A stretch of DNA of 64,000 nt from a virus: IMG/VR virus record IMGVR_UViG_3300042691_051382; one strand, written 5' to 3'. This document shows, in pieces, positions 41,701-64,000 of the stretch. The notes under the pieces were generated by a model. That model searched no databases, was not told the origin of the DNA, and saw only the letters and a program-made list of their open reading frames with translations. The translations under genes were made by a program, and so were the position numbers. Numbering within the stretch: position 1 is the stretch's first letter; each line of letters begins with the position of its first letter.

Positions 41701-42062
41701 TGAACGCTAAAACCTACGCCAGTACCGCAAAGCAAGTTGTACATAGCTTCTTGAAAGAATCGCAAACGATCAACGTAAGAACCACAGCAATTATAACTGC
41801 GAGCGTTATGACGAAAAACGGCATCGCCAGCAAATTGCAGATTGCGTTGACTGCCGACACAAATTTTGTTTTCATAAGCATCAAATGCTTCGTCGATAAA
41901 AGGCTTGAGAGTTTCAATCGATCCTGCATATTTAGAAAGGTGCATACCACGACTGCGTTCGATACATTCTTTCCATGTTTCTCGACGATGAAGCTCGGTG
42001 TTATACTTGGCGTACTTTGAAACAAAGGTATAATCTGCAAGTGCCTGTACTTGTGCGTTCAT
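38772..42062 (-). CDS. nrdJ: class II (B12-dependent) ribonucleotide reductase with intein
   Basis: YNC, GTGVGFSV, GGIRRSA, QR..SNNS, GEPG, NP[intein]CVE, CNL, TCIKP.G, IACAGG.C; no small subunit nearby. Confidence 0.9.
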   Translation of the reverse strand: MNAQVQALADYTFVSKYAKYNTELHRRETWKECIERSRGMHLSKYAGSIETLKPFIDEAFDAYENKICVGSQRNLQFAGDAVFRHNARSYNCCGSYVDRLRFFQEAMYNLLCGTGVGFSVQAHHVAKLPPLDLREKTEIVTHEISDSIEGWADSIGILVSSYFKIVDQNSIYPEYQGKVVKFVYKNIREKGTPFSHGIGRAPGAEPLRNAHEKIRKLLDECVANGQTNLKPINAYDIVMHSSDAVLSGGIRRSATICIFSVDDQEMMNAKTGNWFIDNPQRGRSNNSALLLKNNTSPEQFKLLIESTKQFGEPGFYWSDSTEMIPNPCLPSDAWVLTKQGPRQIKDLIGKSFDAYVNGKLYHSPTGFFHTGYQKIYQVKTSEGYSVSATHNHQFLIVDEHNNQSWKTIDQLNIGDCMVIHDHDNIQWDGKLNEREGWLLGSLLGDGCISDDTAYLDYWGDNANIMKNIALDNLKSNNMIAEHVSGYSQIATVTKQRVESVNLKKLANSYGMRRGNKNLNENIEEISSDAYRGFLRGYFDADGSVQGNTAKGTSIRLCSVNMHNLEIVQRMLLRLGIYSKIFANRRPAGERKIKNGVYACQACHELVISRNMIGRYLDLIGFEDPEKKLKLNNLVCSYQKNFYKTKFVATVSSIVQKDSEMVYDCTVNDIHAFDANGFYTHNCVEIGFYCYDADGNSGWQFCNLSTINGSKIKTAADFRKAARAATIIGTLQAGYTDFPYLGKVTESIVRREALLGVSITGMMENPKVLLSAYYQREVASELSAVNREVAAIIGINPAARITCIKPEGSTSCMLGTSSGIHPHHAKRYIRRVQANKMEAPAQYYANLNPRSVEESSWSANNTDVCISFACEVNDNAILKNQIDAIQMLDNVKTTQMNWVASGCNAELGTQPWLSHNVSNTVVVKPEEWDAVEHYIYDNRQYFAGVSLIGSSGDKDYTQAPFTEVFTPAEIVEIYGNASLFASGIIEEAMMSYGDLWKACATALGYGENLDEKRVLEHEELHRQNKLNWIVRVKKFAKKYYGNDVKKVTYLLKDVYNWKLWYDIVKEHKKVDYTELYEGTNTTNGTQEIACAGGVCLV
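40020..41081 (-). mobile_element. intein (354 aa) with LAGLIDADG homing endonuclease
   Basis: Begins CLPSDAWV, has block B T.NH, LLGSLLGDG and FLRGYFDADG, ends FYTHN before Cys+1. Confidence 0.93.
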
Positions 42063-42922: not shown

Positions 42923-43944
42923 ACTCGTTTCCACTTTGAAAGTTTAAGATGTGCCGCCAAACCTTGATGGGTATTATTATCTATCATCTGCTGAATCCAC
43001 TCGATCGACATCAAACCCATATGCATGTCGTTGACATCTTTGAAAGTTACAGTATCGGGCCATATACAAACTTTCAAACCAGCATCGATAGCATCTTTGA
43101 TTGTCGCAACAATTTCTGCATTTCTGGGTTCGTTGTCGTACACAAAAACTGTATTGCTTGTGTCGAACGGCATGCGATCAAAAGAAATGGAAGATCCTGC
43201 TAGAGCAACCGAATTGTCGATAAACAAACTATCGATTGGTCCTTCAAAACAATAATTCTTTTTGGTTTGATCGAGTCGTTCCATGCCATAAATTTTAGCC
43301 ACATCCTGTTCGCTGTCGCGAATGGTTATATATCGACTAACAGCGTTGGGATCAAGAGCACGACCCTGGATTGCAAACAGTTTTTTGTCGGCTGTATAAA
43401 AAGGAATCACAATTCGCTCGTCTCTGGGTCCACCCGATTCATGCAAGTTCTTTTTTGCTGCTTCGTTGAAGTTTTCTGTGTAGTAAAGAATACGCCAGTG
43501 CTTTTCGGGAATCAAACGATCAGCAATATATTTTTTAGCATGATGATCATCGGGTAGATCGCAGATTCTAGTACAACACAGCAAATCGTTTTTGGTATCA
43601 AAAACAGGTTTGTTTGAAGCAACAATTTTAGTTATTTCTTTGTAGTTGGCTGTGGTACCTGAAGTAAACTTTTCTTTGATCGTTTCCAAACGATAATCTT
43701 CGTACAACACTCCACCAGTTTGTTCTAAAAATTTTGGAAAAGTTGTGGAGTACGAACAGTTGTGGCACTTGACAAAAAACTTACCCTTTTCTTCAAAAAA
43801 GAAAAAACGAGTTTTGTTTTTATTTTTCTTGGAATCACCGCAAATAGGACAACGACACACAGCAACATTGTTGCGCTTCCAGGAAAACTTTTCAAGGCGA
43901 GCACCAACAAGATTGATATATTTCATTTCAACAAAATAACTCAT
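42919..43944 (-). CDS. DNA primase gp61
   Basis: RCPICGDS.K...K.R, CHNC, QGR, EGPIDS.F, DNEPRN, KD.ND. Confidence 0.95.
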   Translation of the reverse strand: MSYFVEMKYINLVGARLEKFSWKRNNVAVCRCPICGDSKKNKNKTRFFFFEEKGKFFVKCHNCSYSTTFPKFLEQTGGVLYEDYRLETIKEKFTSGTTANYKEITKIVASNKPVFDTKNDLLCCTRICDLPDDHHAKKYIADRLIPEKHWRILYYTENFNEAAKKNLHESGGPRDERIVIPFYTADKKLFAIQGRALDPNAVSRYITIRDSEQDVAKIYGMERLDQTKKNYCFEGPIDSLFIDNSVALAGSSISFDRMPFDTSNTVFVYDNEPRNAEIVATIKDAIDAGLKVCIWPDTVTFKDVNDMHMGLMSIEWIQQMIDNNTHQGLAAHLKLSKWKRV

Positions 43945-45287
43945 GAGAAAAATCCTTCAAGCGTATTCTTGCGTTCGTGACTCCATTTGACTGCATCAAG
44001 CAAACCAATCAAAGGTTCCAGAAATGTTTTCTCAAACTGCAAATTGTAGTCAACATACTGTGTCAATTTCATTTCGGGTGGGATTTTTCCAACATAACTT
44101 ATCACACGATCGCCTGTTGGATTTGGCTCGCGCAAATACAAAAAGCGAATTTTGTCTCCGTCGCCGATCTTGGTGTACAGTTTGTTGAGTTTCATTTTGT
44201 CGAGCATGTGATTGAATATCAAAGCACCCTTGACGTGAATGGGTGTTCCCTTCGTGAATACAGTACTCTTGCTGGCATATTTTTCCAGTCCATTTACGCC
44301 ACGAGGAAAAGAAATATCTTCGGGTTGACTTGCAAAAAACACTTGCTTGAAATTGTCAATATAATCAATCAAACTGTTTTCGTCTTGCGTGAGAATAATC
44401 TTAACACACTGCTTGAGATGTTCACGACAAATCGATGGAGTACTGGATCTTTGAACTTCGATGCCCATGATCTTGAGTTGCGGTTCGCTGTAACGAACTC
44501 CTTCGCTGTCGTGAACATTCAAGCAATACATTTTCTTGGCTTTCCACAAGCCACGATCCGCAATAACTTCGCGCTTCATTTCCATCTTTTGTGAATACGC
44601 ATTCATACGATCAGCCAATTGCTGATAGCACTTTTCGATGTACGGATCCATGATCTGCTTGCAGAACTTGTCCAAGAAATCAACAATCTTGGTTTTGTTG
44701 GTTTCGTTGGGACACGAAACTTCAACAGCCGTTTTGAGATTCAAGTACACGCTGTCGGTGTCGCTTGCGATCACATAATCACGGTTTTTTGTTTTGAACA
44801 ACTTGTTGAGATATTCGTTGAGTTTGTTTTGAATCCAACGAATACTCAACTGCCCCGACAGCGTGATTGCTTCGGCTTGACGCACATCGTAGTGACGGAA
44901 ATACTGATTACCCAAAGCACCATACGCAGAATTTAATGCTATCTTGTATGCCGATTGTTGAGTATTGTATTTGTCTATTTGTTTTTGAATATTGTTTTTT
45001 TGATCGATGGTAATGTCTTTTTTTGATGCTTCTTTTTTTAACAAAGACATTTTTTGTTTACTGTATTTGCGCTTTTCGTACATAGAATTCATTAATTCTG
45101 GTAAAAATCCATCAGAATCTTTTTTATAAATTGTACCATTGGATGCAATAGCAAAATTCAGCAATTGACATGCTTCAAAGATCAAAGGATTTACTTTACC
45201 ATCAATTATAGAGTCTGGAGAAATACTAGTTATTCTTCCATTTTCCATCGAATCCAGTAGAATTTTTAATGCTTCTTTTTTTGTCAT
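43941..45287 (-). CDS. DNA polymerase gp43, C-terminal fragment
   Basis: GFLP, K..LNS.YGA.GN (motif B), DTDS (motif C), KK.Y, clamp-binding TLEGFF; ATG 45287 overlaps the endonuclease stop. Confidence 0.93.
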   Translation of the reverse strand: MTKKEALKILLDSMENGRITSISPDSIIDGKVNPLIFEACQLLNFAIASNGTIYKKDSDGFLPELMNSMYEKRKYSKQKMSLLKKEASKKDITIDQKNNIQKQIDKYNTQQSAYKIALNSAYGALGNQYFRHYDVRQAEAITLSGQLSIRWIQNKLNEYLNKLFKTKNRDYVIASDTDSVYLNLKTAVEVSCPNETNKTKIVDFLDKFCKQIMDPYIEKCYQQLADRMNAYSQKMEMKREVIADRGLWKAKKMYCLNVHDSEGVRYSEPQLKIMGIEVQRSSTPSICREHLKQCVKIILTQDENSLIDYIDNFKQVFFASQPEDISFPRGVNGLEKYASKSTVFTKGTPIHVKGALIFNHMLDKMKLNKLYTKIGDGDKIRFLYLREPNPTGDRVISYVGKIPPEMKLTQYVDYNLQFEKTFLEPLIGLLDAVKWSHERKNTLEGFFS

Positions 45288-45952
45288 TTGAAACGGCATT
45301 CCCTAGAACAAAACAATCTAGTTTTGATGCAATTTGGTGTATAAAATTCTTTATTACAATTTTTGCATATCCATTTTTTCTTTTTTGGATATAAAAGTTC
45401 TTTTGGTTTTTTTCCCGCGATTCCTAATTCCTGTATTCTTTTTTTAACTAAAGAAGCACTGCAATTATTTTCTTTTGCTATCTCTGGCTTCGTTTTTCCT
45501 TTGACTACAAATTCTTCGTATAATTCTTCATAAGTAGGATCATATATCCTTAATCCTTTGCAAGCTTTGCGAAAAGATTGTATAGATTCTTCTGACCATT
45601 CTGGACGTTTACAGCCAGAATACGATCCACCTTTAAAATCGGATATATTAAATAATATCCCACCGTCAACAAAACGTCTACCATGTTTTTTAATATATTC
45701 ATGTTCAATATTATATGCTTGTTCGTCTGAAATGTTTTCGGCTAGAATAACTATATGTGGTTTTTTACCAGATTCCATCATTGATTTTATTTTATAATAT
45801 AAGTATGGATTTGTCGTTTTTTCCGGATTTTTCCATAGAGATGGTTTTAAATGAGCATTTTTTCGATTGTCGTGACCTTTTCCAACATAAAATCCCGGAT
45901 CTTCGGATTCTTCTGTTTCTTTATACAGATACACGTAACAGTTATTTTTCAT
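45284..45952 (-). CDS. free-standing GIY-YIG-type homing endonuclease
   Basis: YVYLY...FYVGKG...R...H, A...E...I...G...L.N; C-terminal HTH-like segment and CxxC...FCS..C zinc finger; AT-rich. Confidence 0.8.
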   Translation of the reverse strand: MKNNCYVYLYKETEESEDPGFYVGKGHDNRKNAHLKPSLWKNPEKTTNPYLYYKIKSMMESGKKPHIVILAENISDEQAYNIEHEYIKKHGRRFVDGGILFNISDFKGGSYSGCKRPEWSEESIQSFRKACKGLRIYDPTYEELYEEFVVKGKTKPEIAKENNCSASLVKKRIQELGIAGKKPKELLYPKKKKWICKNCNKEFYTPNCIKTRLFCSRECRFK

Positions 45953-45959
45953 TGCATTC

Positions 45960-46006
45960 TCCTAAATAAGATGGGGGTATAGTATGTATCCCCATCTTAT
46001 TTAGGA
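45960..46006 (-). promoter_or_regulatory. 17-bp hairpin sequestering the endonuclease RBS, with a late-type CTAAATA in the 5' arm
   Basis: TCCTAAATAAGATGGGG / CCCCATCTTATTTAGGA perfect inverted repeat; AGGAG SD overlaps the stem. Confidence 0.8.
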
Positions 46007-46007
46007 A

Positions 46008-47282
46008 TTAGCAATTTTTGATCATCTGCAACAGGTCTTCTTCGGTGACCATCTTGCTAGGGCAAATATTAAATTGTGAAATAGTCATAGGATACATAGA
46101 ATTTAAATCATAACTCACAACCCAATCGTGAAATCCAACGATCGGATCTTTTACGTATGCGCCTGCGTATTGACTGTCTTTGTTTTTGTCGCGACGTTGC
46201 GAGATCACAATGTTGCTGCGAAGCAGATGGTTGTAAATGATCGTGTCCCACATTCGCACTTGACCAAACACATCGTTGTAATTGGTTTTAGCGAGATAAG
46301 CCATCGATATGTGCAGTTCAAGCAGATTGAGTTTGTCGTCCAGTTCACGAACCAGATCCACGTCTTGAACGTTATATTCAACAAACTTTTGAAAGTTTTT
46401 GGTGTAGAAATCTCGGATGTGACCGTACTCGGAATAATCAACTTTCTTTTTGCCGAGTTCTATGCTTGCGATATAATCAAGCTTGTAGCTTTCGCGTGGC
46501 GCAAGAACATACTTGCGATACAACTCGTAGTAATCGAGAATATCAACGCCCGAGATTTTGTAAACCTGTTGCGTTTTGCCTTTGTAATCTACTTCGTCGT
46601 CACGCAGATTGCGCCACGGCGAAAGGCTGCGAGCCACATCGTTTCCGCGCTTGCCAAACACACGCTTGATGCGATTCACAATATATGGAATATCGTAGAA
46701 ACGAACATTCCATCCTGTCACTACATCCGGATCAATCTCTCGCCAAATCTCAACAAACTTTTCTAAAAGATCTTTTTCGTCTTGAAAAACTTGTTGATAT
46801 ACATTCGCATCTTCAGGAAGTATGAAATTGTTTGTCGCAAGTACATACTTGCGATCATTGTATCTAACGGTGATAACATTGATTTTCTCGCTTGCGTCTT
46901 TGGGATCGCTAAAGCCATCTTCGCATTCGTTCTCAATATCTATGTACACCGTACGAATCGTATTCATGTCATACTCGGCATCCTCGTGATTGGGATACAA
47001 ACTAGAGATGTATTGATAAATCCAATCGGTATGACCGTGGACCTCAAAGTTTTGAACATCCGAATATGTTTCCACAAAATCTTCGCAATCGCGAATGGTT
47101 CCGGGTTGAATTGGTTCCACAGCCACACCCTTGATGGTGCGATATGTTGCTGTCGCATTTTTGCTAGGAACATACAACGTCGGTCTAAATGCAATGCGCT
47201 GTTCCACACGCTTGCCGTTCTCGTAACCACGATACAAAATATTGTCGCCGCTCGTTTGAACGTTTGTGTAAAATGTATTCAT
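46008..47282 (-). CDS. DNA polymerase gp43, N-terminal fragment (exonuclease + motif A)
   Basis: MNTFYTNV, DIE, TGWN..FYD.PY, LDY..LY.K, YN..DV, Y.GAYVK.P, SYDLNSMYP; start at ATG 47282. Confidence 0.93.
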   Translation of the reverse strand: MNTFYTNVQTSGDNILYRGYENGKRVEQRIAFRPTLYVPSKNATATYRTIKGVAVEPIQPGTIRDCEDFVETYSDVQNFEVHGHTDWIYQYISSLYPNHEDAEYDMNTIRTVYIDIENECEDGFSDPKDASEKINVITVRYNDRKYVLATNNFILPEDANVYQQVFQDEKDLLEKFVEIWREIDPDVVTGWNVRFYDIPYIVNRIKRVFGKRGNDVARSLSPWRNLRDDEVDYKGKTQQVYKISGVDILDYYELYRKYVLAPRESYKLDYIASIELGKKKVDYSEYGHIRDFYTKNFQKFVEYNVQDVDLVRELDDKLNLLELHISMAYLAKTNYNDVFGQVRMWDTIIYNHLLRSNIVISQRRDKNKDSQYAGAYVKDPIVGFHDWVVSYDLNSMYPMTISQFNICPSKMVTEEDLLQMIKNC

Positions 47283-47288
47283 ATAAAA

Positions 47289-47360
47289 AGCCACCTGCGG
47301 GATTTGCACCCGCGCTCTGACGCTTACAAGGCGACCGCATTACTACTCTGCTAAGGTGGC
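47289..47360 (-). tRNA. tRNA-Thr(TGT), atypical
   Basis: GCCACCT/AGGTGGC acceptor, loop CT-TGT-AA; T-loop reads TGCAAAT and the anticodon stem has a T-T mismatch. Confidence 0.75.
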
Positions 47361-49032: not shown

Positions 49033-49272
49033 TCACTTGTCGTTTCTGCGATTTTGATCGCCAATGATCGCACCACCTACACCACCTATAATGGCTCCAG
49101 CAGCCGCTCCTTTGCCCATATCGCCCGTTAGCGAGCCGATACCCATTCCAGCCAGTGCTCCAAGGGCTGCACCGCTTAAACCGCCTTGTACGGCATTGTT
49201 GCACCCCGGCAGAAAAATGAATCCACTTGCTGCAACAAAAATCTTAATTTTGCTCTTCAGATTGAGTTTCAT
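49033..49272 (-). CDS. glycine-zipper lipoprotein
   Basis: Basic N-terminus, hydrophobic stretch, LPG-C lipobox, GAALGA..G...G...GAAAGA..G..GG. Confidence 0.75.
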   Translation of the reverse strand: MKLNLKSKIKIFVAASGFIFLPGCNNAVQGGLSGAALGALAGMGIGSLTGDMGKGAAAGAIIGGVGGAIIGDQNRRNDK

Positions 49273-49681
49273 TTTTAATTTTCTTTCCGATATTGTATTT
49301 GGGAACAAGTTTCCACTCGTTTTTTTCTTTGTAATTCAATACTTTGATTGTGTTCATCAAAGCAACCGGTTCCTCGGTTTTTGCTTGATCTACTATATTG
49401 ATCAAGCCCCAATCTTCCAATAAATTTGTGATGGTATTTCTACGAGCCAGATCGTCTTCATCGAAAGTTATATCGTGACCATCCAAACCAAACAACTCTT
49501 TAAAGTGAACTATGTAATATTTGCCGCGTTTGTGAAGTATATGACACGATTGATAGAGTGTGTTTTCTTTGCGACTCGCAACACCAATTCGGGTCAAAGT
49601 TTCTTTTATTTTCAAGAAATTTTGCGGATCGGTTAAAGTGACTTCCACTAGACTTTCTAAACCTTTAAATTCTGTATTCAT
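49244..49681 (-). CDS. regA: translational repressor RegA
   Basis: FLKIKETLTRIGVASRK...LYQSCHILHK.G.YYIVHFKELF. Confidence 0.96.
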   Translation of the reverse strand: MNTEFKGLESLVEVTLTDPQNFLKIKETLTRIGVASRKENTLYQSCHILHKRGKYYIVHFKELFGLDGHDITFDEDDLARRNTITNLLEDWGLINIVDQAKTEEPVALMNTIKVLNYKEKNEWKLVPKYNIGKKIKNETQSEEQN

Positions 49682-55355: not shown

Positions 55356-57260
55356 TTACACAATCAAATTTGGATAAAAGCTTTCCAATATTTTTCTATA
55401 TTGATCGGGAGTGTAAATTTTTCCGGCAAACCATACACCCGAAACAGAAGATGGATTCGAGCTACCAACAATTTGACTCGAGTTGTAATAATTGTACGCT
55501 GCTTGCACGCTGTCCCATTCGGCTTGCGAATAAATTCTGAAACCAGTGTACGAAAAATGCGAAAGATCGAGCGTGTCGGAATTGTCGCTGCGCCCAGCCA
55601 ATCCTTTTGTGTCGGCAGTGAATCCTTGAGTGAGCAAAAACATATTAACAGCCGCAACGCGGTCGTTGTTGTTGCTCACTTGCACCGCAGCTTGACGTGC
55701 AAAATCTAAACTAGAATCGTTGTACTCTTGAGGCGGTGATGCAACAAACAACCAATAAAGATTGCTGTTGTTCCATCCGTTTGCAGAATATACAGCATTG
55801 AATCGATTTATTATTGCTTGCCAATTGTCGGCAAGTCCCGATGCAGTATCGCTGCTGAGTCCAGCATTTGGACCAACCGATGTGGTACCAGCTTCGTACC
55901 CTGTTGATGGACGATCGTTTACGCCTCCGTGTACGCGTATCAACAACGGAGCCGATGCAGCGTTTGTGTATCCTGCGTGCTCTGCCATGCCTTGCAAAAC
56001 GTTTGTTAAAAATTCGTTGCTTTGATTTTGCAAAGTTACCGCATGTGTTCGTGCACCGCGACTACCAAGATACATCATGACGGTGGATGCATAACCGTTT
56101 GTTGCTCCACTCACCGCAGCTGCCGAAAACATGCTGCACCAAGGACCGCTGGCTCCCGCATTAAACGGCATGAATACGGTGGTGTAATCGCGACCGGCAC
56201 TCGCACCGATTGCAAAATCCAAACGACGCATGTATTGAGTTGCGCTGCCATCGAGCGTTTGCGAACCGGCTGTGAGAGTGCTGCCAGTTCGCACCGGCGT
56301 AAAAAATCCGCCAGCACTGGCTCCGTACGTTTCCACAAAAACAGTGCTGCCGCTGTAACCGTTGCCTTGGTATTGACTCGTCAACGAACTGCCGGTTACG
56401 CTGGCCAACGGAAGATTTGTGCCGGCGTAATTGCCGCCGATTCCGATCGAGATGGCAGCATCGCCCGAAAACAAATTGCTTCCCGATTCGCTCACCGATA
56501 CGGTTGCGGTCAATCCCGGAAAACTTGCGTGCAAAGCTGTGCGTATGTTGCTGGCAAAAGTTGAACTGTTGCTCGAATAAGTGATGCCTGCGGTGGTGGT
56601 CAAACCCAACTGCAACTGAAAAGTTCCGCCAGCCGAACTCAGGTAGTTGTTGATGTTCACGACTTGCGTTTGATCTTGATTGCTACTTTTGCGAGCCGCA
56701 ACGGTTGTGGCGCGACCGTTCACCACCGCGTCGGTGACAAGGTACCAGTGTTGAAACACCAAATCGCTGGCGAGACGTTCGAACGGTCGCGAATGACTCG
56801 CCACGTTGCTGCCGTGCACCGCAAAACCAAACGTGGTGTTCGACAAATTGCTGGCGGTCACCACAAACGGTCGCAGCGCACCCATGTACGTGCGCGTGGC
56901 ATCGGTTGTGGCAGAGCCGCTGCCGCGATTGGTGACCAAACTGTGCCACGCAACCGGCAAGCTGGCGGTGAATCCCGCATCGGCAGTGGTGCTGGGCGAT
57001 GCGTTGTTGCTGAGCGTGTCTTGATTGGCACCGTGACCGATTGCGGTGTTTTCTCCGGTGCCAATCAACCCGGTTCCGAAACGTTGCAAATTTTGACTGT
57101 TGAGAGCCAACACAACTCCCGAATCCCAACCGTGACCTTGATATTGTGTGGTGCTGTCGCCGATCAACCCGATGCTGACACGAGCGGTACCACCGTACAA
57201 TTGTTGTAAAAACCCGTTGATTTTACTGGCGTTGTGAACAGCTGTGACTAGACTTTGCAT
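55356..57260 (-). CDS. SGNH/GDSL-like hydrolase with inserted beta-rich domains
   Basis: IGDS (block I), GGVND (block III), DLSH (block V); late-type CATAAATA upstream. Confidence 0.6.
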   Translation of the reverse strand: MQSLVTAVHNASKINGFLQQLYGGTARVSIGLIGDSTTQYQGHGWDSGVVLALNSQNLQRFGTGLIGTGENTAIGHGANQDTLSNNASPSTTADAGFTASLPVAWHSLVTNRGSGSATTDATRTYMGALRPFVVTASNLSNTTFGFAVHGSNVASHSRPFERLASDLVFQHWYLVTDAVVNGRATTVAARKSSNQDQTQVVNINNYLSSAGGTFQLQLGLTTTAGITYSSNSSTFASNIRTALHASFPGLTATVSVSESGSNLFSGDAAISIGIGGNYAGTNLPLASVTGSSLTSQYQGNGYSGSTVFVETYGASAGGFFTPVRTGSTLTAGSQTLDGSATQYMRRLDFAIGASAGRDYTTVFMPFNAGASGPWCSMFSAAAVSGATNGYASTVMMYLGSRGARTHAVTLQNQSNEFLTNVLQGMAEHAGYTNAASAPLLIRVHGGVNDRPSTGYEAGTTSVGPNAGLSSDTASGLADNWQAIINRFNAVYSANGWNNSNLYWLFVASPPQEYNDSSLDFARQAAVQVSNNNDRVAAVNMFLLTQGFTADTKGLAGRSDNSDTLDLSHFSYTGFRIYSQAEWDSVQAAYNYYNSSQIVGSSNPSSVSGVWFAGKIYTPDQYRKILESFYPNLIV

Positions 57261-57292
57261 GAAAATTTCCTTGAAAAATCACATGCAATTAT

Positions 57293-57499
57293 TTATGGTT
57301 CGGGTGCTGCAACCGGTTGAACCGGAATGAAACTTCGGCGCGCCAAAACCGAGTCGATTGCCATGTTGGTCGTGTTGGTTGCTTCGAGCGTTGCCACACG
57401 CTGCACCAACACTCCCACTTGATACGTTAAAAACGCCAACACAATCAAAACGAACGTGTATGCAACGATGCTAAAATTTTGAAAACGATGCTGGTTCAT
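57293..57499 (-). CDS. small membrane protein
   Basis: AGGAG SD, TM segment, CTATATACT upstream. Confidence 0.55.
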   Translation of the reverse strand: MNQHRFQNFSIVAYTFVLIVLAFLTYQVGVLVQRVATLEATNTTNMAIDSVLARRSFIPVQPVAAPEP

Positions 57500-57639
57500 T
57501 GTTGCTCCTAGAGTGGTTGCAAGTATATAGCGAAACACCCGCATGCTGGCGGGTGTTTGAGTACCTTAAGGTTGTTTGAGGTTGATCGGCGAAGCGGTTG
57601 ATATCATCCGAGACATGCATATTTAGCGGTTGTGTTGCC

Positions 57640-57990
57640 GAGAAAAATTCAAGAAAAACAATTTTTGCAGTTTTTTTTTGCACGGTGCATATACCCTAAC
57701 AAAAATCTTAAATAGTTTGGTAACGTAAAAATTTTTGTGGCGATTTTTTTTGCGGGGGGCTAGTGCAACAAGGGGGGGGTGGCTTACGTATGGGGGGGGT
57801 GGATCAAAAATCTTAAATTTGTTTGGGTGTGTTTGTTTTTTTGTGGCGATTTTTTTGTGGGGGTTTTGCGGGGTTTTTGCGGGGTTTTTGCGGGGTTTTT
57901 GGGCGGTCGGAAAATTTGCGAAATTTGGTGGCTATAGGGGTATAGGGCTTTGGGGGGTCGGCTTATATATGGGGGGGGTAGCCAATTTGC
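57640..57990. repeat. non-coding G/T-tract region with 11-bp repeats (GGGGTTTTTGC)
   Basis: G-runs at 57859, 57870, 57881, 57892; duplicated TTTTGTGGCGATTTTTTT and GGCTTA.[AG]TATGGGGGGGGT. Confidence 0.85.
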
Positions 57991-58101
57991 CGATTTGACT
58001 TGTCGAGTCGAGTCGGCTTGTGACCGGGACTTGCGGGTGGCCAGACCCGAGTCAACCCCGAGCCTAACCCTACCCGAACAAAAAAATTTCGTGCTTGTCA
58101 C

Positions 58102-58130
58102 TCGACACGCCTACGGTCGAAGCCTATACT
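58102..58130 (+). promoter_or_regulatory. cassette promoter 1
   Basis: TCGACA-cgc-CTACGGT-N7-TATACT. Confidence 0.85.
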
Positions 58131-58206
58131 CTCTTGTCGGAAGCGGGTCGCGTGACTCGCACCGACCGAAACCTGCTCCCTATGGGGAGCCTTTGGAGAC
58201 TGTGTC

Positions 58207-58608
58207 ATGGCTAAGAATGAAATCCGTCAAGCATACAACAAGATTTGTGCCGAGGCGAAATCCGCAGGCAAGTGGTTCGTGAGCCTGTACGCAATCGAGT
58301 CGTATTACGGTGGCCCCGAAGAAGGTGGGTGGTGGGGCAACGACTGCGTGCTTGTGGAATACCAAGAAGTGCGCACCGAGGAGGAGGCAGATCTTCTCGC
58401 AGAGAAGATCACGCAACTCGCCGCACAGATGACCGAGGATGCCAAACGGCAACACGGCGAGCGATGCTTGCGTGAAAGCGAGTGGTGCGCCGCTCGTGGT
58501 CTCGACGACGACTTCCTACCCGAAGTCGATGGTCACGACGAATACCGAGTCGTGATCGAGGAAACTCCTGGTTCGCAAGAACATCGAGGATCCCGTCACT
58601 ATGAATGA
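58207..58608 (+). CDS. cassette 1 hypothetical protein
   Basis: 133 aa; V.LY.....YGGPEEGGWW motif; GGAG SD. Confidence 0.85.
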   Translation: MAKNEIRQAYNKICAEAKSAGKWFVSLYAIESYYGGPEEGGWWGNDCVLVEYQEVRTEEEADLLAEKITQLAAQMTEDAKRQHGERCLRESEWCAARGLDDDFLPEVDGHDEYRVVIEETPGSQEHRGSRHYE

Positions 58609-58724
58609 TCGTTTCACCGCAGCGATGCGGTGATGCCGCCAGACCCGATGGTACTGTATGGTGTGCGATTTGTGCCAACCCCGAGCCTAACCCTACCCGA
58701 ACGCAAATATTCTGTTGCGAATAG

Positions 58725-58753
58725 TAGACGCGCCTACGGTCGAAGGCTATACT
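58725..58753 (+). promoter_or_regulatory. cassette promoter 2
   Basis: TAGACG-cgc-CTACGGT-N7-TATACT. Confidence 0.85.
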
Positions 58754-58829
58754 CTGGTGTCTGGAGTGAGTCGCGTGACTCGCACCGACCGAAACCTGCT
58801 CCCTATGGGGAGCCTTTGGAGACTGTGTC

Positions 58830-59153
58830 ATGGGCAAGATCGGTAAAGTCGCAACCAAGATTAGACGTGATGAAAATGGTAACGTTTTTGTTCGTTACCA
58901 CAACACCGACGTGGTGACTATCACGGACCATTCGGTGATCTTGAACCACGGCGGCTGGATCACCCGCACCACTCTTCGACGCATGAATCAAGCAAGCGCT
59001 CAGTGGAACCTCGGGTATCGGGTGTTCCAACGCAAGGGTCAACTCATGCTTCACTGGGTTGGCTGTAACTTCAAGTGGAACGGAGCCACCAGCGGCGACA
59101 GCCGCACGTTCACCATGAACTGGTGCGAGAACCCACTCGATCAAGTCAAGTAA
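58830..59153 (+). CDS. cassette 2 hypothetical protein
   Basis: 107 aa; V.YH.T.VV...LN.GGW.T.TT..RMN. Confidence 0.85.
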   Translation: MGKIGKVATKIRRDENGNVFVRYHNTDVVTITDHSVILNHGGWITRTTLRRMNQASAQWNLGYRVFQRKGQLMLHWVGCNFKWNGATSGDSRTFTMNWCENPLDQVK

Positions 59154-59165
59154 AAACCTCCAGTA

Positions 59166-59196
59166 GCCCCAGGGAGACCGATTCCCTGGGGCGTTT
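59166..59196 (+). terminator. cassette terminator type A
   Basis: GCCCCAGGGA-gaccgat-TCCCTGGGGC-gttt; identical copy at about 60588-60618. Confidence 0.75.
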
Positions 59197-59283
59197 CGTT
59201 GGTGCGCCAGACCCGATGTGGTACGGTGATGTGCGATTTGTACCCCGACCGAACCCCAAACACAAATATTCTGCTCGAAACAG

Positions 59284-59312
59284 TTGACACCGCTACGGTC
59301 GAAGGCTATACT
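59284..59312 (+). promoter_or_regulatory. cassette promoter 3
   Basis: TTGACA-ccg-CTACGGT-N7-TATACT. Confidence 0.9.
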
Positions 59313-59356
59313 TGTGTGTGGAGCGAATGGGTCGCTCCCGTACTGGAGACTGAATC

Positions 59357-59773
59357 ATGCTTAGCGTATCCGAAGCCGTTGAAACTGTCGCTCGCATCCA
59401 AGCACTTCACCTTGCGGATCGTGCCGCACTCGCAAGTGCCGCCAAGCCCCGCAACTCGGAGATTCCCCCAGGCGAGTATCCCGTAGACTTCACGGTGCGA
59501 ATCGTTGGTATGGTCAAGAAGGGCGAAGACTACGTTTCTACGCAACCGCAAGCCATCAACCCGTGGGCGTTGTGTGGCTACCTTCTCAGCAAACTCAACG
59601 CCACCACCGCCGCAAGCGTGGCGCAGTACGTCGCCGAAGCGTACAAGAGCGGCGAAGACTTTGACGCATATAAGAAATATGCGGAAGCGGCTATGGAAAC
59701 TATCGCCGAAGCCACCACCACCACCAAGAGCGGGCGAACCGACTGTGTGGTGTCGGTGACCGTAATCAAATAA
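59357..59773 (+). CDS. cassette 3 hypothetical protein
   Basis: 138 aa; G.Y.VDF.V...G.V..GEDY. Confidence 0.85.
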   Translation: MLSVSEAVETVARIQALHLADRAALASAAKPRNSEIPPGEYPVDFTVRIVGMVKKGEDYVSTQPQAINPWALCGYLLSKLNATTAASVAQYVAEAYKSGEDFDAYKKYAEAAMETIAEATTTTKSGRTDCVVSVTVIK

Positions 59774-59784
59774 ACCTCCAGTAG

Positions 59785-59814
59785 CCCAGCGGGACCGCCA
59801 ACCGCTGGGTGTTT
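59785..59814 (+). terminator. cassette terminator type B
   Basis: CCCAGCGG-gaccgccaa-CCGCTGGG-(t/c)gttt; copies at about 62067 and 63507. Confidence 0.75.
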
Positions 59815-59921
59815 CGTTGGTGCGCCAGACCCGAGTCAGCCCCAGGCTGTGCGATTTGTGCCAACCCCGAGCCGAACAAACACCTAATTTCAACAATTTG
59901 CATCCGAATTGTTGAAACAAG

Positions 59922-59950
59922 TCGACGCGCCTACGGTCGAAGCCTATGCT
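59922..59950 (+). promoter_or_regulatory. cassette promoter 4
   Basis: TCGACG-cgc-CTACGGT-N7-TATGCT. Confidence 0.8.
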
Positions 59951-60005
59951 TCCCTGTCGGAAGCGGGTCGCGTGACTCGCGCCGACCGAAACCAGGAGTC
60001 AAGTC

Positions 60006-60578
60006 ATGGCAAACAAGCGTATCGTTTCAATCCCCGTCTCGGTGTATCATATCGTCGGTCTCGCGGTTGCGGGTCAAGATGGACGATACTGGTATCACTC
60101 GGAGGGTGCTACCCTCCAAACGGCTGCCGAAACCCTAAAGGTTTCGGCGGAACATTTCGCGAGTGTACTCGCGATCACCTCACCTCAAGTCCCCGTCGCA
60201 CGCAACGGTAGGATTACGGTAGGGTTTTTGAGCAAGGGATTGCGCTGGGCCATGATGCCGTCGGTGCATAGCGCACTGGATCACTATCTCGCCACGGGCG
60301 AGATTCGTGGTCCCAAGACGGGACCGTTCGCTCGCGCATTGCTCGGCGACGAGCAAGCGATTGTATTGGATGTTTGGATGGCACGTGCATTCGGCGTGCC
60401 GCAAGGGTGGTTCAAACTCGTGGACTGCCGCGAGAAATGCGAGGCGATGATTCGCCAAGCGGCAGCGATTCTCGGATGGACCCCCGCCCAAGTTCAGGCG
60501 GCGGTTTGGACCGAGATGACCCGCAAGCGAGGCGGCGGAAGCCTCCAGTTGATGCGGTGGGTCGATATGTACAAATAA
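60006..60578 (+). CDS. cassette 4 protein, HhH-glycosylase-like fold (tentative)
   Basis: G..WY, LA.TSP...V..N, GPK...F...L.GD...V.D.WM.RA, TPA.VQA..W. Confidence 0.7.
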   Translation: MANKRIVSIPVSVYHIVGLAVAGQDGRYWYHSEGATLQTAAETLKVSAEHFASVLAITSPQVPVARNGRITVGFLSKGLRWAMMPSVHSALDHYLATGEIRGPKTGPFARALLGDEQAIVLDVWMARAFGVPQGWFKLVDCREKCEAMIRQAAAILGWTPAQVQAAVWTEMTRKRGGGSLQLMRWVDMYK

Positions 60579-60704
60579 CCTCCAGTAGCCCCAGGGAGAC
60601 CGATTCCCTGGGGCGTTTCGCTAGCCGCCGGACCCGATGGGATACAATGTTGTGCGATTTGTACCCCAACCGAACCCCGAACAAACTTTTTTGCTAGCAT
60701 TTTC

Positions 60705-60733
60705 TTGACACCGCTACGGTCGCAGGCTATACT
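60705..60733 (+). promoter_or_regulatory. cassette promoter 5
   Basis: TTGACA-ccg-CTACGGT-N7-TATACT. Confidence 0.9.
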
Positions 60734-60776
60734 TGTGTGCGGGCGCGATGGTGCGACTCGCTTCTGGAGAATCGGC

Positions 60777-60941
60777 ATGGAAGAAACCAAAAAATGTAAG
60801 TGTGGCGAAGCGGCTGTGTGGGTTCCCAAGGAACCCGCTGCGGGATTGCCCGCAGGGTGGGTATGCGCCAAGGAATCGACAATCGCTCCGTTTGTCGATG
60901 AAGGGTGCGATTACTTTGTACCCGAATCAAACCCCAACTAG
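60777..60941 (+). CDS. cassette 5 small Cys-containing protein (54 aa)
   Basis: ATG 60777 after CTGGAG; MEETKKCKCG...WVC...GCDYFVPESNPN. Confidence 0.7.
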   Translation: MEETKKCKCGEAAVWVPKEPAAGLPAGWVCAKESTIAPFVDEGCDYFVPESNPN

Positions 60942-61047
60942 GAAAAAAGCCCCGAAAGGGGCACGCCGCCAGACCCGAGACGTATCGGTCGCTGCACCCT
61001 AACAAACACCTAATCTCTACGATTTTCAAGCGAATCGTTGAAATGAG

Positions 61048-61076
61048 TCGACGCGCCTACGGTTGCGGGATATACT
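61048..61076 (+). promoter_or_regulatory. cassette promoter 6
   Basis: TCGACG-cgc-CTACGGT-N7-TATACT. Confidence 0.85.
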
Positions 61077-61123
61077 GTTCATGCCGGAAGCGAATGGTTC
61101 GCATCTGGCATCTGGAGAATGTT

Positions 61124-61489
61124 ATGCAAACTGAAACGGCTGAAACAATCAAGACAATCTTTGAACCGGCTTTGGGCAGGGAGATTCCCGTCGCACGTCG
61201 ATGGGAGGGTGTACCCAAGTGGATCACCACCCACTTCATCGTTGTTGATGGAGCCGGGAACTGGGGTCGGGGTCGAACCCTGACCGATGCCAAGGGTGTA
61301 GTGTTGAAGGCGGCAGGCGCAAAGTCGCACGCCCACTTCAACCGGGTGGGCATGTTGGCGTACATGATCCGGCAGGACGAACGCTCGCCCGAACCGTGGG
61401 TCAACGGTTACGGAATGATCTGCAACTATGCGGATCAGTTCAACGGTGATTACAGCTTGATCGAAGAGATCAAGTGCAAGCGCAAATAA
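61124..61489 (+). CDS. cassette 6 hypothetical protein (121 aa)
   Basis: ATG 61124 after CTGGAG; WGRG.T..DA. Confidence 0.8.
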   Translation: MQTETAETIKTIFEPALGREIPVARRWEGVPKWITTHFIVVDGAGNWGRGRTLTDAKGVVLKAAGAKSHAHFNRVGMLAYMIRQDERSPEPWVNGYGMICNYADQFNGDYSLIEEIKCKRK

Positions 61490-61622
61490 CAATCCGGGTT
61501 TGAACCTCCCCACGGGAACATTCCCGTGGGGATTTGTTTGCGCCAGCCAGACCCGAGCCAGCCAGCGGCTGTGCGATTTGTACCCCAACAGAACCCGAAC
61601 ACAAATATTCTGCTCGAAACAG

Positions 61623-61651
61623 TTGACGGTGCTACGGTCGGAGAGTATACT
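61623..61651 (+). promoter_or_regulatory. cassette promoter 7
   Basis: TTGACG-gtg-CTACGGT-N7-TATACT. Confidence 0.85.
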
Positions 61652-61695
61652 TCAGTGTCGAGCGAATGGGTCGCTCGAACAAACTGGAGACTGCG

Positions 61696-62055
61696 ATGAA
61701 ATATTCTGAAACAATCCGTGTGGATGTTCGTCGGTTCTTTGAAGACTTTGAGTGTGAAGTCGAGTATGATATGCACAACAACTCGGCACAAGATCGTGCC
61801 GAAGGGTTAGGTGCTACCACGCTCGATGAGGGTAGTGTCACCATCACGAATCTCAACGAACTCTGGCAAGAGTTCGTAGACGACGCAGTTCGTGAAGACT
61901 ACGCAGTCGAGGGTACGGGAATCAAAGCGGTGGTGACGCTTCCCGAAGAGACGACCAACACCAAGAGATATCCCGTCGAACAAGTCCACTTCGAGGACTT
62001 TGAAGGATACTTGATCGAGTCGCTGATCAATCGACTCAGCGACAACAAGTGGTGA
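61696..62055 (+). CDS. cassette 7 acidic hypothetical protein (119 aa)
   Basis: ATG 61696 after CTGGAG. Confidence 0.8.
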   Translation: MKYSETIRVDVRRFFEDFECEVEYDMHNNSAQDRAEGLGATTLDEGSVTITNLNELWQEFVDDAVREDYAVEGTGIKAVVTLPEETTNTKRYPVEQVHFEDFEGYLIESLINRLSDNKW

Positions 62056-62183
62056 ACCTCCAGTAGCCCAGCGGGACCGCCAACCGCTGGGCGTTTCGTT
62101 GGTGCGCCAGACCCGAGTCAGCCCCAGGCTGTGCGATTTGTACCCCGACCGAACCCCAAACAAACTTTTTCGCTAGGATTTTC

Positions 62184-62212
62184 TTGACACCGCTACGGTT
62201 GCGGGCTATGCT
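62184..62212 (+). promoter_or_regulatory. cassette promoter 8
   Basis: TTGACA-ccg-CTACGGT-N7-TATGCT. Confidence 0.85.
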
Positions 62213-62260
62213 TCCCTGCGGGGAGCGAATGGTTCGCCTCCTGCATCTGGAGACCGAATC

Positions 62261-62518
62261 ATGTGCAGTTGCGAAGACCGTCCGTGCTGTGGCTGTGGTT
62301 ACGATGACTTCACGGTTCCCGAAAGCGGGTACGATGCCGAAGCGTACTACGACGATGAGGAAGCCGAGGACATGGGCGACGGCGAACCGATGGGTTCGCA
62401 CGACATGAGCGACGATGCCGATGCGCTCGCAAGCGCAGGGTTCGGCATGGACGAGGACTACAATCACTTCGACTCAATCGAAGACCAATGGCTCGACGGG
62501 TCGTACGAAGGTGAATGA
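62261..62518 (+). CDS. cassette 8 very acidic protein with N-terminal Cys cluster
   Basis: MCSCEDRPCCGCG...DDADALASAGFG.DEDY. Confidence 0.8.
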   Translation: MCSCEDRPCCGCGYDDFTVPESGYDAEAYYDDEEAEDMGDGEPMGSHDMSDDADALASAGFGMDEDYNHFDSIEDQWLDGSYEGE

Positions 62519-62631
62519 CCCAGCCCCGCAAGGGGCATGCGCCAGACCCGAGCCACACACGCCGCCAGACCCGAGTCAACCGCAACCCGATCCCGAACAG
62601 AACCCAAACACAAATATTCTGTTGCGAATAG

Positions 62632-62660
62632 TAGACACGCCTACGGTCGAAGGCTATACT
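62632..62660 (+). promoter_or_regulatory. cassette promoter 9
   Basis: TAGACA-cgc-CTACGGT-N7-TATACT. Confidence 0.85.
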
Positions 62661-62733
62661 TCCCCTGTCGGGAGCGAGTGGTTCGCAACCGACCGAACCC
62701 GCTCCCGCACGGGAGCAACTGGAGCCTAGTATC

Positions 62734-63495
62734 ATGCAACTTCTCGATGACGGTGATTCGAATACTAAACTGAGCAAGAATACCGCTCGCACGTGGGGGC
62801 TGTCGCTTGCCCCAGCCGATTCAAGCGGCTACAACGTTTGCCCGTGGAGCACCGATGGCTGTCGCACGGCGTGCGTAGCCTACGCTGGTCTCTCGATCGT
62901 ATGGGCGAGCATTCATGCGGCACGGGTGCGAAAGACCCGTTGGTTCTTCCAAGAACGTCAAGCGTTCGTGTCTCGCTTGAACCGTGAAATCACCAACAAG
63001 AATCGTTGGTGTGCTCGCAACGATACCATCGGATACATGCGCTTGAATGTGTATTCGGATATTGGTTGGGAGAACATGGTTGACCTGAATCGGTCGAACA
63101 TCCGCTTCTACGATTACACCAAGTCACTCAAGCGAGCATGGGCGCAACTGTGCGATTCGTGCTACCGTCTGTGCTACTCGTACAATGAATCAAGCAACCC
63201 CGCCGAAGTGCGCAAGTTTCTCGAAGCGGGTGGAACCATTGCGATGGTTCGAGCCGACATCAAGTACGTCAACAAGAACAACAAGGGACCGATCCCCGCA
63301 ACCGTCACCATCGACGGGGTCGAGTTTCCGACGTTCGATGCGGACGAACAAGACAATCGATTCCTTGACCCGAAGGGTGCGGTTGGAATCCTCCGACTCA
63401 AGGGCGACAAAGAGATGCGCAAGCATGCAATCGACACCCACTTCGCCCAAGGAACCCCACACCACACTCACCTCACCGTGAGTGCCAAGAAGTAA
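62734..63495 (+). CDS. cassette 9 GP88-family-like protein
   Basis: N.KL.K, L.LAPA..SG.NVCP....GC...C, RLN..SDI.W, FYDYTK, D..D.RFLD..G....L..KG. Confidence 0.75.
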   Translation: MQLLDDGDSNTKLSKNTARTWGLSLAPADSSGYNVCPWSTDGCRTACVAYAGLSIVWASIHAARVRKTRWFFQERQAFVSRLNREITNKNRWCARNDTIGYMRLNVYSDIGWENMVDLNRSNIRFYDYTKSLKRAWAQLCDSCYRLCYSYNESSNPAEVRKFLEAGGTIAMVRADIKYVNKNNKGPIPATVTIDGVEFPTFDADEQDNRFLDPKGAVGILRLKGDKEMRKHAIDTHFAQGTPHHTHLTVSAKK

Positions 63496-63614
63496 ACCTC
63501 CAGTAGCCCAGCGGGACCGCCAACCGCTGGGCGTTTCGCTCGCCGCCAGACCCGAGCCAGCCGCTGGTTGTGCGATTTGTGCAACCCAGACGCAACATTT
63601 TTGGTTGCGAAAAG

Positions 63615-63643
63615 TTGACACCGCTACGGTCGCGGGATATACT
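63615..63643 (+). promoter_or_regulatory. cassette promoter 10
   Basis: TTGACA-ccg-CTACGGT-N7-TATACT. Confidence 0.9.
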
Positions 63644-63680
63644 GTGGTGCAAGCAAGCCGCTTGCATCTGGAGAATCACA

Positions 63681-63902
63681 ATGGTCGAGTCGATCAACTG
63701 GGAGTTTGAAACAAGCCGCGCTCGTCGTATGACGGTCGAGAGTCTTCGGTGGAGCATCCAAGACGCTCGCGAGGCGTTGGACTGTGCCGAGGAGATGGAG
63801 CGTGCGGGACTTGCCAACAACGCAGGCAAGTATGCGGATCAAATCCATGTGTACAACGCCGAACTCAACCGCCGATTGCAAGTCGGCAAGCGCAACAAAT
63901 AA
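63681..63902 (+). CDS. cassette 10 hypothetical protein (73 aa)
   Basis: ATG 63681 after CTGGAG; SL...I.DA.EA...GKY.D..H....EL.RR. Confidence 0.8.
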   Translation: MVESINWEFETSRARRMTVESLRWSIQDAREALDCAEEMERAGLANNAGKYADQIHVYNAELNRRLQVGKRNK

Positions 63903-64000
63903 GTTTTTTGCCCTTCATAGCCTCGCTTATCTTTCGACGACGTTCTTCCGAAAGTTTTTTTCCTTTGTTAGCCTCGCTCAACTTTCGACGATGTTCTTCC
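63901..64000 (+). repeat. start of a different ~51-bp tandem repeat (2 copies, truncated)
   Basis: AAGTTTTTT..C.TT..TAGCCTCGCT.A.CTTTCGACGA.GTTCTTCC twice. Confidence 0.75.

Follow-up and report, generated by a model that had tools for sequence, protein, structure and literature searches.

Phage gene-cassette terminators whose flanks complement the cassette leaders: a candidate for masking of the Shine-Dalgarno sequence in cis

About one third of the small early-gene cassettes found in an array of the viral record IMGVR_UViG_3300042691_051382, and in arrays related to it, end in a terminator that is complementary to the cassette leader. The stretch analysed (64,000 nucleotides; hereafter the window) contains genes for a split family-B DNA polymerase, RegA, the gp62/gp44 clamp loader, the gp45 sliding clamp and ribonucleotide reductase, and its RegA (49244-49681; PF01818, E 6e-47) is closest to the RegA proteins of T4-like cyanophages, with 65% identity; the source is a freshwater phage, of the T4 type by its gene content. 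The array itself (Table 1) has a GC content of 56%, as against ~41% in the remaining window, and runs on for ~7 kb beyond the window end in a contig (L072) that is identical to the window over 3,360 bases and extends the array of the same phage. We propose that the long terminators of this array (class L, defined below) act as cis anti-leaders that mask the Shine-Dalgarno (SD) sequence of the completed mRNA, a reading that, from sequence and modelled folds, we hold to be a little short of an even chance.

Each of the ten window cassettes has its own promoter-like site (nine such sites were counted on the + strand, where 3.0 are expected) and a leader with a 5'-terminal hairpin. The intergenic modules run in the order stop codon, hairpin, GCCAGACCCGA, usually TGTGCGATTTGT, a small palindrome, a sigma70-like promoter, the 5'-hairpin leader, SD and ATG. 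The open reading frames (ORFs) encode 54-253 amino acids; seven of the ten have no Pfam family and three match the phage families Kyano_Gp96, DUF7178 and GP88. An initial annotation, made by a model from the letters and a list of their ORFs, had placed the sequence ACCTCCAGTAG right after the stops of ORFs 2, 3, 4, 7 and 9, and exact copies are indeed found at all five places, starting 0-2 nucleotides (nt) past the stop codons (the first A of the ORF4 copy is the last base of its TAA). These are the only exact copies in the window, all on the + strand and all within the array; with up to two mismatches there are 17 matches, as against 5.9 +/- 2.2 in shuffled sequences, none of 100 shuffles reaching 17. 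Its description as the reverse complement of the cassettes' own ribosome-binding site holds as well, CTGGAG being the SD hexamer in seven of the ten cassettes (TTGGAG in two, CAGGAG in one), as does the 8-bp inverted repeat that it saw around ORF3 (TACTGGAG and CTCCAGTA). The annotation missed that the element is bipartite, with CTCCA before and GTTTCG after a hairpin, and that the array is a region of a T4-type phage similar to the promoter-early stem-loop (PeSL) cassettes described below. A further sequence that it had listed as a variant, ACCTCCCC at 61504, probably does not belong here: it is 15 nt away from the stop, shares bases with the 5' arm of another type of hairpin and has no GTTTCG downstream, and its match to its own leader falls short of significance (z -1.1).

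Related arrays were recovered by a metagenome scan for two spacer boxes, followed by exact-protein look-ups. Five were found, with 75-88% nucleotide identity, one of them complete on a 99-kb contig; their gene content consists of shared ORFs plus insertions and replacements, with one relocation (the homologue of ORF6 follows that of ORF10 in L091). No close relative was found in phage records by megablast or by way of two proteins, and an IMG/VR search with two DNA patterns returned single chance matches only. After removal of duplicates, the window, L072 and the five related arrays give 68 distinct transcription units. Class L comprises 23 of these, with CTCCA[AG] before a 9-12-bp hairpin and, in 22, GTTTCG after it (the remaining unit, which encodes an antirestriction-like ArdC-N domain and has the core and a long hairpin without GTTTCG, was added by hand). 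Three units form class M, with TTCCTTGTT before another type of hairpin and AACAAGGAG in a short leader; twenty, class S, end in a short GCCCC-tetraloop hairpin without any element; and 22 are unclassified ('other').

In class L the constant core is CTCCA(G/A), lying 1-7 nt past the stop codon and separated by 0-2 nt from the stem of the long terminator hairpin that follows; the trailing TAG of the 11-mer ACCTCCAGTAG is dispensable in the relatives. None of the 22 aligned full modules departs from CTCCA or from the post-hairpin GTTTCG, while compensatory changes are seen at four of the eight consensus stem pairs and the stem exists in six variants or more. The two flanks, CTCCA(G/A) and GTTTCG, are the antiparallel complements, in order, of two conserved leader motifs, the SD (C/T)TGGAG and CGAAAC, and in several units 13 contiguous leader bases (AACGAAAC plus TGGAG) can pair across the base of the hairpin. 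Proximity to the stop codon is not specific to the element, as cassettes with plain terminators likewise have a hairpin 2-10 nt past the stop.

Folding of full transcripts, which the initial annotation had put forward as a check, agrees with long-range pairing. When the whole predicted transcripts (230-1,010 nt) were folded by partition function, an equilibrium model, the GGAG of the SD was paired to the 3' tail with a probability (P) of 0.66-0.997 in 16 of the 19 class L and M units folded, as against 0.000-0.015 in class S units; ORFs 5 and 8, which have the same SD and no 3' element, were folded as natural negative controls. The SD is much freer in 3'-truncated RNAs than in the full-length folds, and an in-silico change of CTCCAG to GAGGTC lowers P from 0.75-0.997 to 0.001-0.45. 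For the ORF3 unit, an independent fold gave an 8-bp SD helix abutting the terminator in the minimum-free-energy (MFE) structure and the centroid alike, and a four-way junction is predicted where a leader hairpin separates the two motifs, as in ORF2. Measured against shuffled tails, each of the 23 class L tails has the greater complementarity to its own leader (z -0.5 to -5), whereas the z of 'other' tails scatters around 0. Of the earlier suggestions, the one that a completed transcript masks its own ribosome-binding site has the best support: the pairing is predicted with high probability in most units that carry the element, is lost in silico on changing the core and has a counterpart of different sequence in the second family (class M); the masking itself is a prediction.

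The most telling case for pairing with the unit's own SD is class M, where TTCCTTGTT gives 9-13 bp, in every case with the first SD of the unit (two two-gene units among them), and fits the CTGGAG of the next cassette poorly (-4.3 to -9.0, as against -11.9 to -14.4). With both classes pooled, cognate 5'/3' duplexes are stronger than permuted ones (-10.18 vs -9.07 kcal/mol, p = 0.0003). The leader of the ArdC-N gene differs between two phages, and in each of them the 3' base matches it. A private complementarity in the ORF6 family (GACGTT/AACGTC) was discarded; it is not conserved in homologues and so is probably due to chance.

Several observations weigh against masking in cis. About 60% of the units share the SDs and CGAAAC leaders and yet lack the 3' element, and the CGAAAC motif is found in 16 of 20 cassettes without GTTTCG and in 16 of 23 with it; as such leaders are also present in phage RB49, the leader motifs serve functions of their own. 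No 5'/3' complementarity was found in 22 RB49 cassettes (mean z 0.09), although RB49 shares the leader. Cognate specificity is marginal in class L alone (p = 0.05-0.07), two units pair CTGGAG with CTCCAA at the cost of a terminal C-A mismatch, and the close kinship of the related arrays keeps the counts from being independent. Pairing is not predicted for three of the units with an element: L087 3389 (P 0.015), L096 2893 (P 0.002) and, in L072, the class M unit, which reaches P 0.069 to the defined tail, its SD being partly paired to bases beyond the hairpin. Finally, neither ribosomes nor the kinetics of co-transcriptional folding enter an equilibrium fold, and both ends of each transcript are predicted positions, as is the inclusion of GUUUCG in the released RNA. 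Two narrower rules were dropped: that CGAAAC and GUUUCG co-occur as a pair (CGAAAC is equally common without GTTTCG and is present in RB49 leaders), and that CTCCAA is restricted to TTGGAG leaders (broken by L101 and L107).

If the long terminator does act as an anti-leader, completion of the 3' end would let its flanks bind, in cis, the leader from which that RNA began, and the helix would stack on the terminator hairpin into a three- or four-way junction, leaving the mRNA looped shut and the SD buried. Ribosomes would then load mainly during synthesis of the mRNA or while a terminating ribosome covers the element, and a strong early promoter would yield a limited pulse of protein from each cassette. 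Terminator and leader modules would stay compatible after cassette shuffling because the anti-leader matches the array-wide leader consensus. A more elaborate version, to which we give little credence, holds that the closed loop sets the SD beside the stop, so that a ribosome terminating there, with CTCCA (1-7 nt past the stop) under its footprint, melts the mask and passes straight to the freed SD; translated mRNAs would remain open and idle ones lock, terminator-protected 3' fragments would outlast decay of the mRNA as anti-leader small RNAs that shut off the early cassettes, and each mobile cassette would carry an expression timer.

A DNA-level or historical explanation seems unlikely to us. 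It takes the terminator module to be an inverted copy of the leader module (CGAAAC, hairpin, CTGGAG), homogenised by recombination or serving as an inverted-repeat recombination signal, with complementarity but no role in RNA. The reverse complement of the class L module is in fact laid out like the long leaders of ORFs 1, 2 and 9 (CGAAAC, hairpin, TTGGAG), recombination of PeSL-type modules is known (PMC2839356), and gene order varies among the relatives. However, the flanks are invariant while stems and spacing diverge, class M supplies a second, unrelated complementary pair, and recombination at inverted repeats would invert an ORF, not move one. Several of the non-Watson-Crick positions are, in addition, G-U on the transcript strand (TTGGAG/CTCCAG; AAGGAG/TTCCTT), which in this small sample of close kin favours RNA over DNA.

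The same pairing in cis might instead shield the leader from endonucleases (RNase E or Y, or a RegB-like GGAG cutter) and stabilise the mRNA without silencing it, an outcome that we also consider improbable. Its model is the hbs mRNA of Bacillus subtilis, in which a 14-nt contact at long range, linking the 5' untranslated region (UTR) to the 3' UTR, protects against RNase Y (PMC5737220); since that pairing protects the leader, a stabilising outcome is a live variant. The geometry is nearly that of the array, with a 5' hairpin (present in every cassette leader), a pairing segment just past it and a partner just upstream of the terminator; the hbs helix, however, lies upstream of the SD of a single gene, while that of the array is modular and covers the SD itself, and in the cases tested such coverage reduced translation as well as the amount of mRNA (PMC12697547, PMC3868564). 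No RegB-like gene was identified. GGAG is strongly depleted within the coding sequences of 57 distinct cassette ORFs from the window and its relatives (65 observed vs 111 in codon shuffles, z -5.5), as if it were a liability, but control k-mers are skewed too, making this a weak argument; the cause could be that SDs inside genes are avoided, or cleavage by a GGAG-specific nuclease. A corresponding depletion of CTCC-like words was set aside as weak (z -1.9), with control words skewed as well.

Action in trans has a similarly small probability in our judgement. Terminator-protected 3' decay fragments (CUCCA, hairpin and GUUUCG) would here serve as small RNAs that mask the shared early leaders and bring about a timed shut-off. 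This would suit an element whose match is to the consensus leader of the whole array and not to a private one, with weak cognate specificity in class L, and that only a subset of cassettes possesses; the second element likewise fits a whole leader family, (A/C)ACAAGGAG, and pairing in trans was left possible by the authors of the icaR study (PMC3868564). Intramolecular pairing is nevertheless favoured both kinetically and entropically, L081 and L090 have private extensions that match their own leaders, and stable 3' fragments are hypothetical.

Still less probable, in our view, is read-through insulation, also raised by the initial annotation, in which the element would mask the SD of the next cassette in read-through RNA, leaving translation to transcripts that start at that cassette's own promoter. 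A precedent exists in the T4 genes e, soc and I-TevI, whose ribosome-binding sites are sequestered in early read-through transcripts while transcripts from proximal promoters are translated; there too upstream RNA pairs with an SD in a T4-type phage, albeit through local hairpins of tens of nt. Such silencing is thermodynamically possible: element and next SD share one intergenic module, folds of RNA limited to that module give P 0.82-0.96 for pairing of the core with the next SD in three of six window units, and the ORF2 element pairs better with the next SD (8 bp) than with its own. In read-through RNA, the element could take either partner. Own-SD pairing nonetheless fits better than next-SD pairing. 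The mean own-SD duplex is stronger than the next-SD duplex (-10.35 vs -9.03 kcal/mol, n = 22), and comparison of the bases next to the two hexamers (3' of CTCCAG, 5' of CTGGAG) gives a match in eight of nine informative own pairs and two of eight next pairs (read by hand from tables, prior to two later class L units with an informative base). The TTCCTTGTT of class M does not fit the CTGGAG of the next SD, and the ArdC-N units retain the element even though the following unit is leaderless and so offers no next SD to mask. That CTCCA is simply a conserved upstream part of the terminator with another role, matching the SD by chance, is very improbable: any CTCC matches a GGAG SD and the single short-tail shuffle tests are modest (z -0.5 to -5), but there are two invariant flanks, each matching a leader motif of its own and placed in the correct order, the second family has its own match, and z is negative in every class L tail and around 0 in the 'other' tails.

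Among known systems, the array most resembles the PeSL cassettes of the T4-type phages RB49/phi1, PST and nt-1 (PMC2839356, PMC4122927), whose stem-loop terminates transcription and in which recombination between modules yields mini-circles (PMC2839356). The ten window modules each repeat, from stop to ATG, a stem-loop, a sigma70-like promoter and an SD; the genome is of the T4 type (RegA, gp62, gp44, gp45, split family-B polymerase); small ORFans fill a hyperplastic region whose content is shuffled between relatives; and the leader motif CGAAAC..GGAGA is common to RB49 and the array. The RB49 PeSL leaders (L109, RB49 114.5-126.6 kb) read ACCGAAACGAA(C)T(A)GGAGAATCA, and so close a likeness between RB49 and a distant freshwater phage suggests a conserved early-leader motif of T4-type phages. 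On the other hand, the array modules are longer (~200 nt vs 60-90 nt in PeSL), add GCCAGACCCGA, TGTGCGATTTGT, the spacer CTACGGT and a 5' leader hairpin, and carry an SD-complementary element that is not described in PMC2839356 or PMC4122927. Both boxes lie between terminator and promoter, in L072 as in the window: GCCAGACCCGA has ten copies in the window (58041-63680) and none outside the array, TGTGCGATTTGT has seven, and they are perhaps protein-binding sites. CTACGGT occupies a fixed spot in the promoter spacers of all ten window cassettes (58111-63630; TTGAC-N5-CTACGGT-N7-TATACT), and its exact form is absent from some relatives (L085, most of L079).

For the element itself the nearest counterpart is the icaR mRNA of Staphylococcus aureus, where UCCCCUG in the 3' UTR pairs with the SD of the same mRNA, blocks initiation and makes an RNase III substrate (PMC3868564). 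The array shares with icaR a short pyrimidine motif in the 3'-untranslated part that is complementary to the SD of the same mRNA (the pairing here being predicted). The icaR motif, however, sits inside the 3' UTR (nt 894-900 of the mRNA) of one cellular gene, whereas the array element lies 1-7 nt past the stop, abuts the terminator, is bipartite and is portable across many unrelated ORFs. By sequence and modelling, the array may be described as built of PeSL-like modules to which a 5'/3' pairing of the icaR/hbs kind was added as a reusable part. Two other comparisons go less far. In the fold-back inhibition of hok/Sok (fbi/tac), the 3' end of the full-length mRNA pairs with its 5' end and keeps translation silent. 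The initial annotation had drawn this analogy, of which only the principle of folding the 3' end back onto the 5' end carries over: no Hok family is found among the cassette ORFs (which match phage families or none), activation by 3' trimming is not implied, and no toxin, mok-like overlapping frame or antisense RNA gene was seen (frame and antisense promoter were not specifically searched for), nor any credible Rfam family in 57000-64000. Integron gene cassettes, which are promoterless ORFs each followed by an imperfect inverted repeat (attC) and located beside an integrase, were rejected too, since each cassette here has a promoter-like site and the neighbours scanned are T4-type replication genes with no integrase among them (not every ORF was scanned).

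Table 1 Features of the cassette array, as positions in the window (P, probability of pairing between SD and 3' tail in the predicted full-length transcript).
Feature	Position	Strand	Remarks
Array of ten single-gene cassettes	57980..63902	+	each with promoter, 5'-hairpin leader, SD, ORF and terminator
ORF2 SD, TTGGAG	58816..58821	+	pairs with CUCCAG via one G-U; leader CGAAAC at 58790-58795
Putative anti-SD element ACCTCCAGTAG after ORF2	59156..59166	+	core CTCCAG 59158-59163; P 0.957
Cassette 2 terminator	59166..59198	+	hairpin 59166-59192, GTTTCG 59193-59198; GUUUCG pairs with leader CGAAAC (58790-58795) in MFE
ORF3 SD, CTGGAG	59343..59348	+	
Putative anti-SD element after ORF3	59774..59784	+	CTCCAGTA 59776-59783 pairs with TACTGGAG 59341-59348; P 0.997
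Cassette 3 terminator	59784..59816	+	hairpin 59784-59810, GTTTCG 59811-59816
ORF4 leader CGAAAC and SD CAGGAG	59987..59998	+	CGAAAC 59987-59992 contiguous with SD 59993-59998
Putative anti-SD element after ORF4	60578..60588	+	SD pairing GGAG/CUCC only; with neighbouring CGAAAC/GUUUCG helix, P 0.75
Cassette 4 terminator	60588..60620	+	hairpin 60588-60614, GTTTCG 60615-60620
ORF5 SD, CTGGAG	60764..60769	+	cassette without 3' element, like those of ORFs 8 and 10 (SDs at 62247 and 63668)
ACCTCCCC with hairpin of other type	61504..61532	+	hairpin 61507-61532; earlier 'variant', probably another element
ORF7 SD, CTGGAG	61684..61689	+	
Putative anti-SD element after ORF7	62056..62066	+	P 0.995
Cassette 7 terminator	62066..62098	+	hairpin 62066-62092, GTTTCG 62093-62098
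ORF9 SD, CTGGAG	62719..62724	+	
Putative anti-SD element after ORF9	63496..63506	+	P 0.989
Cassette 9 terminator	63506..63538	+	hairpin 63506-63532, GTTTCG 63533-63538

Other features of the array and its surroundings deserve mention. The best homologues of cassette ORFs 1 and 9 in isolated phages come from Mycobacterium and Gordonia phages, which, together with the GC content of the array, hints at imported cargo; in related arrays, one cassette (L102 1092-1406, L105 9469-9780) encodes a protein with a Cas_VVA1548 (PF09652) domain. At the boundary between core genome and array, the window is gene-free and G/T-rich (57640-57990), with GGGGTTTTTGC repeats at an 11-bp period and runs of G6-G8, and this stretch could be a genome end or an origin-like region. 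Near the window end, a GIY-YIG/NUMOD3 homing-endonuclease gene (L072 3225-3761, - strand; from about window position 63865 onwards) is inserted just past cassette 10, on the strand opposite to it, and overlaps the 3' end of that cassette; its product has 178 amino acids in one contig and 236 in L073, and two 51-nt tandem repeats (window 63901-64000) lie inside the gene.

Further into the array, at L072 5386-5759 and 7173-7463, two promoter-like sites (-10 TATCAT or TATAGT) are followed ~6-8 nt downstream by the ATG of small uncalled ORFs, an arrangement compatible with possible leaderless transcripts. Between them (L072 6227-7172), a 173-amino-acid sigma70-family protein, limited to regions 2 and 4, is encoded in one transcription unit with a Destabilase-type lysozyme; a protein search with this sigma-like factor returned matches only from its own cluster. 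Units downstream of its gene change to TATAGT promoters and short (A/C)ACAAGGAG leaders and are perhaps a second temporal class. Elsewhere in the window (38772-42062 and 43941-47309 cover the ribonucleotide reductase ORF and the split polymerase region), the 1096-amino-acid reductase ORF aligns to phage reductases in two pieces, with a top match that is also annotated with a homing-endonuclease gene there, which suggests an intein or insertion; the family-B polymerase consists of two genes separated by a 222-amino-acid ORF.

Few bacterial or phage mRNAs are known to be controlled by a natural 5'/3' pairing over long range; three examples (icaR, hbs and one further study) are all that a 2025 preprint cites. 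In B. subtilis, anti-SD-like octamers hundreds of nt downstream pair with the ribosome-binding site in vivo, inhibit initiation, promote decay and are depleted from genes (PMC12697547). Published evidence indicates that coding sequences normally avoid such sequences under selection, and an anti-leader that works as predicted would be a case of one that is selected for. Here, the predicted 5'/3' pairing takes the form of a standard, interchangeable part that recurs on many ORFs with no relation to one another and is shared by several related phages. If masking in cis is true, PeSL-type mobile cassettes would carry a post-transcriptional control besides their promoter and terminator, which would explain the limited dosing of possibly toxic takeover genes from strong early promoters and would offer synthetic biology a compact, self-limiting terminator part.

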